The translations under genes were made by a program, and so were the position numbers. From contig JAQTLZ010000004.1 in NCBI GenBank assembly GCA_028714635.1, positions 32,354-96,353 of the forward strand: DNA of 64,000 bases. The letters are read 5' to 3'. The DNA is from Minisyncoccota bacterium (lineage in GTDB: Bacteria > Patescibacteriota > Minisyncoccia > Phycocordibacterales > JAQTLZ01). Below are positions 16,570-55,624 of the stretch, in pieces (positions within the stretch are counted from its first letter, which is position 1; every line of letters starts with the position of its first letter). The notes beneath the pieces are model-generated. The model was given only the letters and a program-made list of their open reading frames with translations. It did not search any database and was not told the origin of the DNA.

Positions 16570-17919
16570 TTATGTTGGCAAATTCGAAGGAGGTTCCACT
16601 TTCTTTGAAGGAATTCTGGTGAATGATGGCGTTGTCGCGGCTTCTCCTGGGAAGTGATAAATGGAAGCGAGGCTTTCTGCATTCATGATAAAGCCGGCTT
16701 CCCGGAAATGATGATAGGGACCTTGGAAGAAGGAGCGTTTCTTGTACGCATCAAGCATCTGCTTTTCCATTCTGTTTCTTCGGATTCTTCGGAAGTCTTG
16801 CCAAGGATAATCGAAATCAGTAAACCAAGCCAATTTTATTTCATTTAATTCTTTCGAATTAAATTGGTTGAAGATTCCAATGATACCCGTGTTCGATATT
16901 GGATTGTAGGCCTCGGCTTTTGCGATGTAAAAAGCGCGGATAGTTGTCTCGAAAGGATATTTAGAAATATTGCGTTCGATCGCAGTAATCGCATTTTTAT
17001 CTCCCTCGCTCATAACTGGATGAATTGGGAATCCGGTATCTGAAACTACGTCTGGTCCCTTGGTTTCCGGATCGCGCTTCATGATCTTATTTACTTCCGC
17101 TTTCCCGGCATCAGACCAGAACGGCTGTTTGTAGAGAAATCCCTCTTTGAGGCCTTGTTTTCTATGGCATTGGAAGAGAACTTGAATCCAAACCGTTTCG
17201 CCTTTTTTCATCGAGCCTAAATATTCAAGAAGCGGAGTCATTGGCTCGATCTTGTATTCCTCTTTTGGATTTTCATGCATGCGAAAATCCATGTATGTTT
17301 TTATCGGATAGATACTTGGCTTCGCGAGATTATAATACGTTCCCCAGATAGGAAGATTCACGGGATCGTGTTCAACTTTATGGACGTAGTCGTCTTCGGG
17401 CTTCACGTCCAAAATTTCAATATTCGGATATTGGCCGTAGAGCTGGTGAACAAGAAGCTCCTTGAATTTTTTGAATGTCCACATGTAGAAGCGAATATTC
17501 CCGTCTTCTGAAACAATTTCGAAAGAAAACCAGGGCTTCACTTTTCCTTTCCAATAAGTTTCAAGATAGGTCGCACTTCCCTTTTGCCATAATGATGTGA
17601 GGACAAGCTCCATTGCTTCGGGAGATTTCACTAGCTCTTTTGGCAACTTAATTTCTATGAGCGCCGAACCCTGCCCCATAAGAAACATTGCGCGCCTCCA
17701 GTGGAGCCAGATATGCATAAATTGCGGAAGAAGAACCAAAGGAAGCCAGATCGGCGAGGTTTCAAAGATAACGGAAATTGTTTTTTCGAGGGCTCCAGGA
17801 AATTGAGCGAGGATAACCAGTGCAACAACGGCGAAAACTCCCACCATGAAATTTTGGAATGGCAGAAGTCCTTTATTGCTCAAATCAAAGATCGCCGGTT
17901 TTTTGGAGCCTGATGACAT
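16570..17919 (-). CDS. Hypothetical membrane protein.
   Basis: 449 aa with two N-terminal TM helices followed by a long soluble domain; I recognise no motif. Confidence 0.55.
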   Translation of the reverse strand: MSSGSKKPAIFDLSNKGLLPFQNFMVGVFAVVALVILAQFPGALEKTISVIFETSPIWLPLVLLPQFMHIWLHWRRAMFLMGQGSALIEIKLPKELVKSPEAMELVLTSLWQKGSATYLETYWKGKVKPWFSFEIVSEDGNIRFYMWTFKKFKELLVHQLYGQYPNIEILDVKPEDDYVHKVEHDPVNLPIWGTYYNLAKPSIYPIKTYMDFRMHENPKEEYKIEPMTPLLEYLGSMKKGETVWIQVLFQCHRKQGLKEGFLYKQPFWSDAGKAEVNKIMKRDPETKGPDVVSDTGFPIHPVMSEGDKNAITAIERNISKYPFETTIRAFYIAKAEAYNPISNTGIIGIFNQFNSKELNEIKLAWFTDFDYPWQDFRRIRRNRMEKQMLDAYKKRSFFQGPYHHFREAGFIMNAESLASIYHFPGEAATTPSFTRIPSKKVEPPSNLPT

Positions 17920-17984
17920 TTGGTTCCTTATATTCTATCGCATAGAAATATGTTTTTCCATCTACAAAAGGTGGATACGGGGAA

Positions 17985-18022
17985 AACAAAAAACTGCCTT
18001 GCCGGCAGTTTTTTGTTTTTAT
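17985..18022. terminator. Hairpin with a T run.
   Basis: aactgcc-ttgcc-ggcagtt followed by ttttgttttt. Confidence 0.5.
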
Positions 18023-22317: not shown

Positions 22318-22356
22318 ACAAAAAACGCCGGCGCAACACGCCGGCGTTTTTTTGGA
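22318..22356. terminator. Strong bidirectional rho-independent terminator.
   Basis: aacgccggcg-caaca-cgccggcgtt flanked by A and T runs. Confidence 0.65.
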
Positions 22357-27381: not shown

Positions 27382-28089
27382 TTATGCCTCAATATCCGAA
27401 AAAAGTATCACATGTTTCATTTCTTTAAGAATTCTTGCCGGGGTTTCTGAAAGATGTCCGGCTGGCGCAAATATTTTTCCTAAAGCTTGCCGTTTCTTCT
27501 CTCCAGTTGCGTACACAATAGATTTTTGTATTTTGCTTCGAATAAATGGAAGTGTGATTGTTACTCGATGCGGATACAGATTTTTCCCTTTAGCATCATA
27601 AGCTACAGCAATTTCATTTTGTTCGAAAAGTTTGTCGAAAAGATCAGGGTTTTCTGCAAATGGCAGAATACCTGCAGTATGGCCGTCTTCTCCTATTCCA
27701 AGAATTGCGATGATGTTTCCTTCCGGATTTTTCAAAATCCAATCCTCGATATTTTTTCTGAACCTCTCGCCGAATTGTTCGAAGGTCTCGTCCGTCTCAA
27801 CTCGTGAGTCAAAAAATTGCACCCCTCCTTTTGTTGCATCAGCAAAAAATTGAGTTTTTTGGAGCTGGCTGAAATTATTTATATTTTCATCAATACTGTA
27901 TCTTTCATCCCCCATTCCTATAGTAAGATTTGAAGAGAAAACTTTTGAATCTACAAAATCCAAAAAAGAGAAAGCGGAACCTCCCGCAAGGAGAAGGAGG
28001 GTGGGAATTTTTTCCGAAAAAAGATGCGAAAGTTTCTCACCAGCCCTTTCTTTTAAGATATTTTCGTTTTTTTCAAAATTTCTTTCCAT
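27382..28089 (-). CDS. pgl: 6-phosphogluconolactonase (NagB/RpiA-like fold).
   Basis: GIGEDGHTAGILP motif, and it is immediately downstream of zwf. Confidence 0.7.
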   Translation of the reverse strand: MERNFEKNENILKERAGEKLSHLFSEKIPTLLLLAGGSAFSFLDFVDSKVFSSNLTIGMGDERYSIDENINNFSQLQKTQFFADATKGGVQFFDSRVETDETFEQFGERFRKNIEDWILKNPEGNIIAILGIGEDGHTAGILPFAENPDLFDKLFEQNEIAVAYDAKGKNLYPHRVTITLPFIRSKIQKSIVYATGEKKRQALGKIFAPAGHLSETPARILKEMKHVILFSDIEA

Positions 28090-28171
28090 CCCGTTAGAAG
28101 CTAGCTTCGATTATTTTATAAACCTTCAAATTAAGCACGGTTTGCAGATGTTGGTTGCTTCTAACGGGATC
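28087..28171. repeat. 85-bp MITE-like element, copy A. It has 14-bp terminal inverted repeats ATCCCGTTAGAAGC and an internal GAAGCTAGCTTC palindrome.
   Basis: catcccgttagaagctagcttcgattat...gcttctaacgggat. The other copies are at 36101-36185 and 51704-51788 (inverted). Confidence 0.7.
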
Positions 28172-35719: not shown

Positions 35720-36103
35720 TTATGCGTTTATAAAAAGATTGTTAATGTGTTTGAGCGCGCTTGAATCGATAAAGACGGAATTATTTAAAAGTATTCGGAT
35801 TCCAGCGATAAGTCTTGGATTTACTTTTTCTTCGAGGAGTACTTTGTCTTTAAATATTCCTTCAATTTCTTTTCTTGTTTTTGCGGTCAAGGGATACGCT
35901 GATTCAACTTCTACTTTTGTCAGACCGTTCTTTTCGACAAATATTTTCTCGAAATGTTTGAGAATAAGCGGCAATCGAATCCAGTCTTTGTTTTTCTTTA
36001 CCGTCTGAACAAAATGCTGGATAAGTTTTTTTTCTTCTCCTTTTTTCGCTCCTTCCAGTGTCTCGTAGAGCGCTTCAGCATATTGTTTCGGCTTGTATTT
36101 CAT
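35720..36103 (-). CDS. atpH: ATP synthase delta (OSCP) subunit, a short form.
   Basis: Position between atpF and atpA, and OSCP-like sequence. It is 127 aa. Confidence 0.7.
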
Positions 36104-36185
36104 CCCGTTAGAAGCTAGCTTCGATTATCTGATAATGGTTCGATTTGGGCATGGTTTGTAAATATTGATTGCTTCTAACGGGATT
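36101..36185. repeat. 85-bp MITE-like element, copy B, inserted between atpF and atpH.
   Basis: catcccgttagaagctagcttcgattatctga...gcttctaacgggat. Confidence 0.7.
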
Positions 36186-39253: not shown

Positions 39254-39261
39254 CCGAACAG

Positions 39262-39293
39262 AAAAAAACCTCCATTATTGGAGGTTTTTTTCT
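39262..39293 (+). terminator. Rho-independent terminator after the tRNA.
   Basis: aaacctcca-ttat-tggaggttt followed by ttttttt. Confidence 0.6.
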
Positions 39294-39301
39294 GTATTTG
39301 T

Positions 39302-51703: not shown

Positions 51704-51788
51704 AATCCCGTTAGAAGCAACCAATATTTACAAACCATGCATAAACTTAACATTTACCAGATAATCGAAGCTAGCTTCTAACGGGATG
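51704..51788. repeat. 85-bp MITE-like element, copy C, inverted relative to A and B. It ends exactly at the ATG of the pseudouridine synthase gene.
   Basis: atcccgttagaagcaaccaatattt...ataatcgaagctagcttctaacgggATG. Confidence 0.7.
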
Positions 51789-52544: not shown

Positions 52545-53240
52545 ATGGCAACCGATAACAACACCGAGGCTCTTGTTTCTTTCATAGACAAGATCAAACA
52601 TCACGCACATGTCACAGCGAAAGACCGTGTGTCTGAAATTGATAACGAATTCTTGAGGGGCTTCGAATTCGTTGCTCAATATCCGAAAACTGTCACTATC
52701 TATGGAGGAACGAAGATTCAAGAAGGAACTGTCTATTACGAAAAGGCTCGGATTTTGGGAAAAAGAATTGTTGAAGAAACCAACTGCGCGGTTGTCACAG
52801 GTGGAGGCCCCGGGATTATGGAAGCGGCCAACAGGGGCGCAAAGGATGCAAATGGAGATTCGATAGGCATCACTATCCGGCTCCCCCACGAACAGGCAAC
52901 AAATCAATACGTTACCGATAGTGTTGATTTTTATTATTTTTTTGTCCGACGATTTATTCTCTCCTTCACGGCTAAATGCTGTATCTTTTTTCCTGGGGGC
53001 TTCGGTACGCTCGATGAATTTTTTGAGATATTAACGCTTCGACAAACGCATAAAATTTCTCCAGTGCCGATTGTTCTTTTTGGCTCGGAATACTGGCAAC
53101 CCCTTGAGAAACTTTTCCGTGCTACCCTTTTGGAAAAATACGGCACGATCCGAGCCGAAGATTTGCTCATTTATAGCATTACAGATGATGAAGACCAGAT
53201 CATCGAAATAATAAAAAAAGCACACCTAAGAGGACAGTAA
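52545..53240 (+). CDS. LOG-family protein (TIGR00730; cytokinin riboside 5'-monophosphate phosphoribohydrolase-like).
   Basis: TGGGPGIMEAANRGA and PGGFGTLDEFFE motifs. Confidence 0.8.
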   Translation: MATDNNTEALVSFIDKIKHHAHVTAKDRVSEIDNEFLRGFEFVAQYPKTVTIYGGTKIQEGTVYYEKARILGKRIVEETNCAVVTGGGPGIMEAANRGAKDANGDSIGITIRLPHEQATNQYVTDSVDFYYFFVRRFILSFTAKCCIFFPGGFGTLDEFFEILTLRQTHKISPVPIVLFGSEYWQPLEKLFRATLLEKYGTIRAEDLLIYSITDDEDQIIEIIKKAHLRGQ

Positions 53241-53247
53241 AGTCACT

Positions 53248-53562
53248 CGCCCACACCTTTTGGGAAACAGCTGCCACTGGTTCTCTGATTGCGGAATAGT
53301 CACTTTTCTACTTCGGAAAACGTGAAAACTCGCCCGCCTGTAAGGCGAGGCTCAGACAGTTCAATTTTCCGGAAAAGCTCGTGATTTTTGCCACACAAAA
53401 ATCACGTCAGAAGATTTTTAGCCGAAGGCGCAAAAATTTCTGACGCTTGCGTTGCACATCTCCTTACAGGAGCGGTACACCTTTCGCTTTCTGAGTACAG
53501 AACGCTCAAGGTCTTGCGGTGCTCCGCACCTCGCCCAGTGAGTTTCCCAAAAGGTGTGGGGC
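53248..53562. repeat. ~315-bp GC-rich noncoding element bounded by 19-bp perfect terminal inverted repeats (CCCACACCTTTTGGGAAAC). It has several internal hairpins. A MITE or a structured RNA are both possible.
   Basis: Left TIR at 53250-53268 and its reverse complement at 53543-53562. Internal perfect hairpin cgtgatttttg-ccaca-caaaaatcacg. Confidence 0.55.
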
Positions 53563-53584
53563 TCGCTTGGGTGGTAAGGAATTC

Positions 53585-53968
53585 CTAGAAAGAAAGCGGC
53601 CAAGGAGTCGGAAACGAGAGAAGCATAAGTACTGCTCCGAGAAGAGCAATGTTTCTTAAGAAGTTGCTAACCTGTATTCTTCTCTGAAGGGGGTCAGTTT
53701 CCTTCCAAAATTGATGCATGATGAAAGTTACAGGAATAAGAAAGACGATAAGACAGACAAGCGACCAGACTGGAGAAATACCGAGAATAACTCCGGCTCC
53801 TCCCAAAAGGATGAGTATGCCCGTAGCATACACGGCAATTTTAGGGCTTGGCACATGACGATTTGATGCACGAGCGACTAAAACAGCTGATTGTGTAAAA
53901 TGGCCGATTCCTTTGTAAAGAAAGTAGCCTCCAAACAACACTCGTCCCAAAAGAAATAGTAAATCCAT
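53585..53968 (-). CDS. DoxX-family membrane protein.
   Basis: MDLLFLLGRVLFGGYFLYKGIGHF... with four TM helices. Confidence 0.75.
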   Translation of the reverse strand: MDLLFLLGRVLFGGYFLYKGIGHFTQSAVLVARASNRHVPSPKIAVYATGILILLGGAGVILGISPVWSLVCLIVFLIPVTFIMHQFWKETDPLQRRIQVSNFLRNIALLGAVLMLLSFPTPWPLSF

Positions 53969-54674: not shown

Positions 54675-55574
54675 TCAGCCAGTCACAGTAAGCGAGAGCG
54701 ATATTACTCCGAGAACTGCGAGAATGACGCCGAGCACTTGATGCCGATTAAGCGTTTCTTTATTCACAGAGACGCCGAGTAGCACTGCCATCACAATGTA
54801 GCTTTCGGCTATTGAGGTCGCGATACTGATTGGAATAAGGGTCATTGCAAACGCGTAGGCAAGCCAGGCGATGTTGTCAAAAAGGCTTTCTTCAAGAATG
54901 ACTTTCGAGTGCCTTCTCATGTCGTTTGGCAAGCTTCTCCATTCCCCTTTTGCAAAAAGGTATACGAAGGTTGCAATGGTTAAGAAAAAATTGATGAACC
55001 AGATTGTCATAAGCGGAGAAATAAGCTGGCTCCCTACTCCAGTCAGGAAATTGGTAAGAGCCATCGCCAAAGTTCCAAGAATTGCGATGAAGACTCCTTT
55101 CTCCCAAATAATCCGATTATAACGAAAAGAACCTCGGACCATAACTGAAAGGATTATTCCGATGAAGATAGCGCCGATCAGAAGACTTTGGGTGAGACTT
55201 AAAATATCGTGCCCAGAGATAACGGCCAGGAAGACAGTAAAAGGAATTCCGAGACCGAACACAGGCTCGACAACGGCGATCTTCCCTCGTTTCAGGGCCT
55301 CAAAATCGAGTAAAGCAGCGAGAAAGACAGATGCTCCGAGAATGACAAGAAGGATGAGGCTTTGCGGGCTTAGAAAAATCTTTTGCACCTCAACCCAGAC
55401 AAAAGGCAACTCCAAGACCATTCCGAAAAAACTTATGAAAAAAAGGGATTTCCAAATACCCACTATTCGGGTTGATTTCTGGATATAAAAATCGCCAACG
55501 CTCCAGAGAAGAAGTGTTGAGACTGACAAAAGAACTCCGAGGGAATTCTGCATGGATCTATTATACCCAGGCAC
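54675..55574 (-). CDS. EamA/DMT-superfamily transporter.
   Basis: About 10 TM helices arranged as a duplicated EamA domain. Confidence 0.7.
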   Translation of the reverse strand: MPGYNRSMQNSLGVLLSVSTLLLWSVGDFYIQKSTRIVGIWKSLFFISFFGMVLELPFVWVEVQKIFLSPQSLILLVILGASVFLAALLDFEALKRGKIAVVEPVFGLGIPFTVFLAVISGHDILSLTQSLLIGAIFIGIILSVMVRGSFRYNRIIWEKGVFIAILGTLAMALTNFLTGVGSQLISPLMTIWFINFFLTIATFVYLFAKGEWRSLPNDMRRHSKVILEESLFDNIAWLAYAFAMTLIPISIATSIAESYIVMAVLLGVSVNKETLNRHQVLGVILAVLGVISLSLTVTG

Positions 55575-55624
55575 TAACTTTTTGGAAAGTTAGTGCCTGG
55601 GTATACCCGTGTAAAAAAGGAGAG

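Follow-up and report, generated by a model that had tools for sequence, protein, structure and literature searches.

The 64,000-nt stretch of DNA analyzed here (referred to as the window), assigned to a Candidatus Pacebacteria metagenome-assembled genome (GCA_028711105.1), contains two genes that converge on a 344-nt spacer (53241 to 53584), all of which is occupied by a palindromic element. The gene on the plus strand (52545 to 53240) encodes a 231-amino-acid LOG/TIGR00730 Rossmann-fold protein, identified by Pfam domains PF03641 and PF18306 and by the names of its homologues, and its stop codon abuts the element. The gene on the minus strand (53585 to 53968) encodes a DoxX-family membrane protein of 127 amino acids (PF07681) and is the last of a run of minus-strand genes. 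The element is closed by a perfect 19-nt inverted repeat, with one arm at 53250 to 53268 (CCCACACCTTTTGGGAAAC) and its exact reverse complement at 53542 to 53560, leaving 273 nt between the arms. This confirms the repeat noted in a preliminary description of the sequence, which had placed the right arm 1 to 2 nt away, at 53543 to 53562. None of 100 shuffles of the window gave two matches to the repeat with 3 mismatches allowed, and we estimate the number expected in 64 kb, for perfect inverted repeats of 19 nt within 600 nt, at about 1e-4; the window holds only one other perfect inverted repeat of at least 19 nt. Past a bulge the closing helix resumes, with CACTGG (53275 to 53280) pairing with CCAGTG (53535 to 53540).

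Eight further Pacebacteria loci were found through close homologues of the two flanking proteins, and the gene order TGT, small ORF, Rlu, LOG, DoxX, 214-amino-acid gene, EamA is kept in all eight. The element itself is absent from seven of them. In six relatives (L086, L087, L089, L105, L106/L107, and L109) the LOG-DoxX spacer is 46 to 70 nt long and contains a classical bidirectional terminator consisting of an A-run, a hairpin, and a T-run, and in L108 LOG and DoxX lie directly next to each other. The element is shared by L085 (GCA_028711065.1) alone, with the same ends and left half but without the central ~143 nt, in a spacer of 208 nt. Since the relatives carry a terminator at the position of the element and not a clean empty site, a replacement is indicated rather than a simple insertion. 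Canonical terminators are used elsewhere in the window, for example at 17983 to 18019, 22320 to 22352, and 39258 to 39295. In a comparison of five genes, the window grouped with L085, with L086 outside (6, 2, and 0 informative sites for the three possible groupings; 96% of bootstraps), and the simplest history given this grouping is a single gain in the common ancestor of the window and L085, replacing the terminator.

Two side observations were made on these relatives. The metagenome-assembled genome GCA_028710915.1 holds two versions of the syntenic locus, L086 and L089, whose LOG proteins are 70% identical to each other and, respectively, 89% and 71% identical to that of the window; this bin thus mixes two Pacebacteria lineages. 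The DoxX protein of the window is unusually divergent, with 72% identity to that of L085, compared with 84% between L085 and L086. As four other genes place the window nearest L085, the divergence of the DoxX sequence suggests accelerated evolution or recombination beside the element.

Alignment with L085 divides the spacer into several parts. The 9 nt to the left of the inverted repeat (AGTCACTCG, 53241 to 53249) differ from L085 at 1 nt, so that conservation extends over the entire spacer and is not confined to its repeat-bounded part. Within the left arm, L085 has A for G at 53264, which yields an A.C mismatch on the plus strand and a G.U pair on the minus strand. Module A (53269 to 53380), which we take as the left half and apex of an ancestral rod, is common to L085 and includes CACTGG, GCGGAA, CTTTTC, CGGAAAAC, and the apical hairpin CTCGCC...GGCGAG. 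From 53241 to 53380, 131 of 140 positions are identical in L085, in which the left and right halves of the rod are almost perfectly paired. The window-specific center begins with module B1 (53381 to 53446, plus strand; nhmmer E = 8e-6, together with spacer comparison), which comprises the two hairpins GTGATTTTTG-CCACA-CAAAAATCAC and GTCAGAAGATTTTT-AGCCGAAGGCGC-AAAAATTTCTGAC. A linker (CTTGCGTTGCACA, 53447 to 53459), weakly similar in the nhmmer alignment to an insert in L087 that is described below, leads to module B2 (53460 to 53518, plus strand; nhmmer E = 3e-12 and 5e-10), which is made up of hairpin a (CTCCT-TAC-AGGAG), a joiner, hairpin b (ACCTTTCGCTTTCTGAGTACAGAACGCTCAAGGT), and CTTGCG. 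The right half of the rod (GTGCTCCGCACCTCGCCCAGTGA, 53519 to 53541) is remodeled: its TCCGC still pairs with GCGGA, as does its CCAGTG with CACTGG, and the CAGAG partner present in the rod of L085 has been lost. The right arm is followed by a flank of 24 nt (GCTCGCTTGGGTGGTAAGGAATTC, 53561 to 53584) with 22 positions identical in L085. By eye, this flank resembles the loop and 3' arm of the L086 terminator and may be a remnant of the ancestral terminator.

The absence of a convincing open reading frame, as stated in the preliminary description, was borne out, as the spacer offers just 66 amino acids on the plus strand (53388 to 53588) and 61 on the minus strand (53418 to 53603). A protein-coding reading was rejected, because both frames start at TTG and fall in the part absent from L085, and a protein database search with a chimeric peptide from the open frames across B2, made to find miscalled ORFs, returned nothing relevant. 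GC content had been called clearly higher than that of the backbone; it is indeed raised (49.8% versus 43.7% for the window), but modestly so, at the 93rd percentile of 311-nt windows. Gene strand and GC skew are unchanged at the site, and a replication origin or terminus was rejected on these grounds. The internal hairpins cgtgatttttg/caaaaatcacg (53380 to 53406) and cgcc-tgtaa-ggcg pointed out earlier are both present. For the long-range partners cctgtaagg and ccttacagg, the complementarity is real but a genuine pairing is improbable and was discarded as not conserved: the 3' partner lies in the covarying hairpin CTCCT-TAC-AGGAG of B2, and the 5' partner is changed in L085.

Both strands of the element are predicted to fold more stably than shuffled sequences, at -128.9 kcal/mol for the plus strand (z = -5.1) and -138.9 kcal/mol for the minus strand (z = -6.2). 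The 208-nt version of L085 folds as a single, almost perfect rod, with z scores of -7.6 and -9.0 on the two strands. Watson-Crick pairs make up 93 to 97% of the predicted pairs and G.U counts are about equal on both strands, so that no transcribed strand can be inferred; the G.U pairs show no strand bias that would discriminate between the strands. Among the stem substitutions, those at 53264 and 53364 would give G.U on the minus strand only and one in B1 would give G.U on the plus strand only.

The rod is the best-conserved stretch of the locus. Of the rod sequence shared by the window and L085, 181 of 192 positions are identical (94%), compared with 72 to 88% for the flanking genes, 50 to 88% for other spacers, and 62% for pooled third codon positions; given the third-position rate, the binomial probability of the rod identity is 7e-26. 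The flanks outside the inverted repeat (9 nt and 24 nt) are identical at 30 of 33 positions, and identity drops to ~80% right at both stop codons, from which it follows that the conserved block coincides with the spacer, flanks of the repeat included. The 11 differences within the rod are not significantly enriched at unpaired positions (Fisher p = 0.10 to 0.34). At 94% against 62%, the rod would appear either to be under selection or to have been exchanged recently and very precisely between the two lineages, which co-occur in sequencing run SRR22315509; in either case, the comparison argues against a neutral relic.

When the window-specific center was used as an nhmmer query, matches appeared at other loci of the sister genomes. 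B1 is missing from the element of L085 but is found elsewhere in L085 (2913 to 2979) as a clean insertion of ~65 nt directly after the Rlu stop codon, where the spacer is merely 20 to 45 nt long in the window and in other relatives. The left boundary of B1 (TGATTTTTG...) is identical in both copies; from this, together with the fuller pairing of the L085 rod, we read the center of the window element as an insertion into the rod and not a deletion from that of L085. B2, whose 59 nt form two hairpins and include an invariant 3' segment of 20 nt (CAGAACGCUCAAGGUCUUGC), was found in L087 (2037 to 2095, minus strand) and in L110 (17773 to 17831, plus strand), a second locus of the L085 genome, and its alignment is 92% identical per column. 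Covariation was read from only two to three copies of each module, a very small number of sequences. Between the two copies of B1, 26 pairs include 6 compensatory changes, 1 wobble, and no broken pair, and the 12-nt loop is conserved. Among the three copies of B2, hairpin a has compensatory changes in 3 of 5 pairs with none broken, and hairpin b and the next 20 nt are invariant. The conserved loops are TAC in B2 and AGCYGAAGGCGC in B1. With covariance models of B1 and B2 (the latter designated R1), the 64-kb window and the related loci yielded no additional copies, and each module was seen once per genome, in 64 kb of the window genome and up to 20 kb per relative. Discrete modules thus recur at other loci in other combinations.

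The surroundings of the two B2 copies were also inspected. In L087, B2 lies inside a separate insert of ~215 nt (~1955 to 2172) upstream of Rlu, which is closed by a different helix, of ~30 bp (AATTACGAAACCCT.../...AGGGTTTCGTAATT), and separates CGCAATG from TATAGT in an Rlu promoter region that is otherwise conserved. This insert folds with z scores of -6.6 and -7.4 on the two strands and has no relevant Rfam match at E <= 10. In L110, an insertion of ~80 nt (17773 to 17850) in the last codons of uvrB consists of B2 and a hairpin (AAATGGGT-CCCA-ACCCATTT). Compared with uvrB of the window, this insertion brings a new stop codon, and the old C-terminal codons are still readable downstream but untranslated.

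The conserved loops, the compensatory changes in the stems, the folding z scores of -5 to -9, and the conservation of the rod relative to third codon positions could be taken as signs of a new trans-acting or autonomous structured RNA gene, whose ends would be joined by the closing helix and whose functional domains would be B2 and possibly B1. The L087 insert would then be a homologue at another locus with a fully covaried closing helix, and a conserved interior with variable closing helices is the opposite of what a MITE family displays. However, the L085 copy keeps the rod entirely without B1 and B2, and the occurrence of B2 alone at the 3' end of uvrB and of B1 alone after Rlu makes the supposed domains separable insertions. 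Most close relatives lack the element, G.U pairs are without strand bias, two substitutions favoring the minus strand and one the plus strand, and neither a sigma-70-like promoter nor an intrinsic terminator was predicted on either strand within 53241 to 53584. We consider an RNA gene of this kind unlikely.

A resemblance to 6S RNA or RNase P, raised in the preliminary description, was not supported by comparison with known families. The rod of L085 (~190 nt) is like 6S RNA (RF00013) in having its ends paired in a long closing stem, but it has no large central bubble in the predicted structure, its sole sizeable internal loop adjoining the apex. The window version additionally has a branched insertion of 143 nt, and the element differs further from 6S RNA in its absence from close relatives and its lack of a predicted promoter. 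At gathering thresholds, Rfam placed no family near the element in the window and four relatives, and at E <= 10 the element and its L085 copy had no meaningful match to any family, RF00013, RNase P, tmRNA, and SRP RNA included. ARAGORN found no tRNA or tmRNA in the element and one tRNA-Ala elsewhere in the window. The element belongs to no catalogued RNA family.

The other proposal of the preliminary description, a MITE, was upheld in part: the element is bounded by an inverted repeat, is of the insertion type, and contains interior sequences that recur elsewhere in the sister genomes, but a second copy and a clean target-site duplication are missing. As an ordinary selfish MITE, it would be a nonautonomous element with 19-bp terminal repeats, a transposase located elsewhere, and no host function, and the similarity between the two copies would reflect recent spread or exchange. 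The perfect terminal repeats, the absence of the element from most relatives, and the presence of both lineages in SRR22315509 agree with this, and the same genome has what looks like a bona fide MITE of 86 nt, with three copies, 14-nt repeats, ATGR flanks, and a site that is empty in relatives. CTCG (4 nt) adjoins both arms as a possible target-site duplication, but the right one is offset by 1 nt and the repeat is not kept in L085 (CTCG versus CTTG). No transposase was present among the 20 window genes scanned.

Searches for further copies also weigh against a selfish MITE. No second copy of the unit with the 19-nt repeat was found in the 64-kb window, which covers about 6% of the genome, or in ~640 kb of the relatives' loci; the only other copy lies at the same locus in L085, which fits vertical inheritance. 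Searches with the element by blastn and nhmmer in 80 loci around LOG homologues of GTDB genomes (at most 56% identity) gave nothing relevant. JGI metagenome contigs scanned with the repeat gave 15 matches, all of them one-armed chance matches in unrelated contexts, and there were no matches in IMG/VR to the repeat, two rod cores, or the B2 core and none by blastn against phages and plasmids. Flanks that are 30/33 identical outside the repeat, next to coding DNA of ~80% identity at the stops, are unlike either a recent recombination tract or two independent insertions.

Logan contigs of SRR22315509 that contain the flanking genes stop at 53294 on the left and start at 53534 on the right, which coincides with the first 31-mers common to the L085 variant (53265 to 53295 and 53533 to 53563). 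The same run contains an L085-type DoxX gene, whose contig breaks at the equivalent point. As judged from these k = 31 graphs, the breaks at 31-mers shared with L085 reflect two co-occurring lineages and not inversion or extra genomic copies. The contig of the left flank enters the element by 45 nt, whereas a further copy that began identically on the left but had other flanking sequence would be expected to break it ~15 nt earlier, near 53279. Overall, a selfish MITE without host function seems to us an unlikely explanation of the element.

The same contig ends bear on a third possibility, namely, that the segment is an inverton, a promoter-bearing stretch flipped by a recombinase between the 19-bp repeats. 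Although 273 nt between such repeats is generally a typical size for invertons, the contigs do not end at the inner edges of the repeats, and their ends are explained by the 31-mers in common with L085. There is no recombinase among the neighboring genes and no promoter-like site inside, the L085 version is a simple rod, and an internal promoter would drive only antisense RNA given that the flanking genes converge. An inverton is accordingly very improbable.

The explanation that we favor, at about an even chance of being correct, is that small palindromic repeats form a nested mosaic, which resembles MITE, BIME, or BOX elements, took over the position of a terminator, and probably forms a hairpin on both convergent transcripts. 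In a first step, the outer rod of ~190 nt (module A, closed by the 19-nt repeat) would have displaced the bidirectional terminator in the ancestor of the window and L085, and in a second step, in the window lineage only, ~143 nt (B1 and B2) would have been inserted into the right arm of the rod. Both convergent transcription units would run into the element, which at the RNA level could act as a two-way structural barrier, substituting for the lost terminator by blocking read-through or by protecting 3' ends against exonucleases. A need to fold on both strands would slow the evolution of the stem, because an intermediate that pairs as G.U on one strand leaves A.C mismatched on the opposite strand, and could account for the high conservation of the rod within the locus. 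We infer this two-way function from the predicted hairpins and the position between the genes.

Compared with a bidirectional intrinsic terminator, the element has the exact position of the terminators in the relatives and likewise folds on both strands. In contrast to such a terminator, it has no flanking A-run and T-run and no U-tract after a hairpin on either strand, its stem is about 10 times longer, and it was missed by the terminator scan.

The closest analogues of the element are small, modular, palindromic repeats that are intergenic and cotranscribed with their neighbors. Among these, enterobacterial BIMEs are mosaics of palindromic REP units; they occupy transcribed spacers downstream of genes, in many cases where two genes converge, and form hairpins in the mRNA. 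The element is similar to these in its palindromic units, which are combined differently at different loci, in its location between convergent genes, and in its predicted hairpins. REP units are ~35 nt long and present in hundreds of copies, whereas the modules described here are 59 to 190 nt long, were seen in one to three copies, and have no sequence similarity to REP. The BOX elements of Streptococcus pneumoniae, of which there are more than 100 per genome, are composed of boxA, boxB repeats, and boxC, with conserved complementary terminal modules. They share with the element a modular organization, complementary ends, a length of 100 to 300 nt, a stable predicted structure, an intergenic location, and a variable number of internal modules. 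Unlike in BOX, the window and L087 elements do not have the same terminal helix, and it is the interior module B2 that is conserved. Correia elements of Neisseria and ERIC (IRU) sequences are cotranscribed with their neighbors and form long RNA hairpins, and copies of ERIC vary by internal insertions and deletions. Again, the element is bounded by an inverted repeat, noncoding, and 100 to 300 nt long, and the copies of the window and L085 differ by an internal insertion; in contrast to Correia and ERIC elements, no target-site duplication, second copy, or parent insertion sequence was detected, and the locus is the same in both genomes. Membership in any of these named repeat families is not claimable, because there is no sequence similarity and the test for a target duplication failed. 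Literature searches returned no account of repeats of this sort from the Candidate Phyla Radiation.

A different view of the interior takes B2 as a domain of an undescribed structured RNA, or of an RNA-guided mobile element, of Patescibacteria, with B1 and the rod as further domains. This is quite unlikely in our estimation. If it were so, the closing helices, instead of being inert repeat DNA, would belong to a functional RNA, and an RNA with a function of its own would constitute a new family.

Patescibacteria (Candidate Phyla Radiation) have very small genomes that are usually described as streamlined. The locus shows that in one such lineage several families of small hairpin modules have entered spacers, gene ends, and even each other. 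One composite of these took over from a normal terminator and has since been better preserved than the genes around it. If its hairpin does substitute for a bidirectional terminator, repeat DNA would have been recruited to shape transcript ends in an unculturable organism. The restriction of the element to two genomes limits its general impact.

Other palindromic elements were noted in the window. One of ~86 nt is present in three copies (28088 to 28170 and 36102 to 36184 on the minus strand and 51705 to 51787 on the plus strand), whose ends are perfect inverted repeats of 14 nt (ATCCCGTTAGAAGC ... GCTTCTAACGGGAT). An ATGR direct repeat borders every copy, and the insertion point coincides exactly with the start codon of the gene that follows, the ATG being restored; the genes concerned encode 6-phosphogluconolactonase (after zwf), ATP synthase subunit delta (after subunit b), and Rlu. 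For two of the copies, the genes on either side seem to belong to an operon. L085, L086, and L089 have an empty site ahead of Rlu. The element has the appearance of a true small MITE with ATGR as its insertion site; it had no Rfam match and was found in none of the other related loci searched.

A perfect 20-nt hairpin with a 4-nt loop (TATACCCAGGCACTAACTTT / AAAGTTAGTGCCTGGGTATA) at 55562 to 55605 overlaps the start of EamA. Of all spacers of the locus, the one there has diverged most between the window and L085 (13 of 26 positions identical, with 24 gapped columns), which suggests another insertion. Finally, hairpins at 2047 to 2077 and 2796 to 2826 share the core GTAGCAAGGA / TCCTTGCTAC, of which these are the only two exact copies in the window; they may be terminators or members of a small palindromic repeat family.
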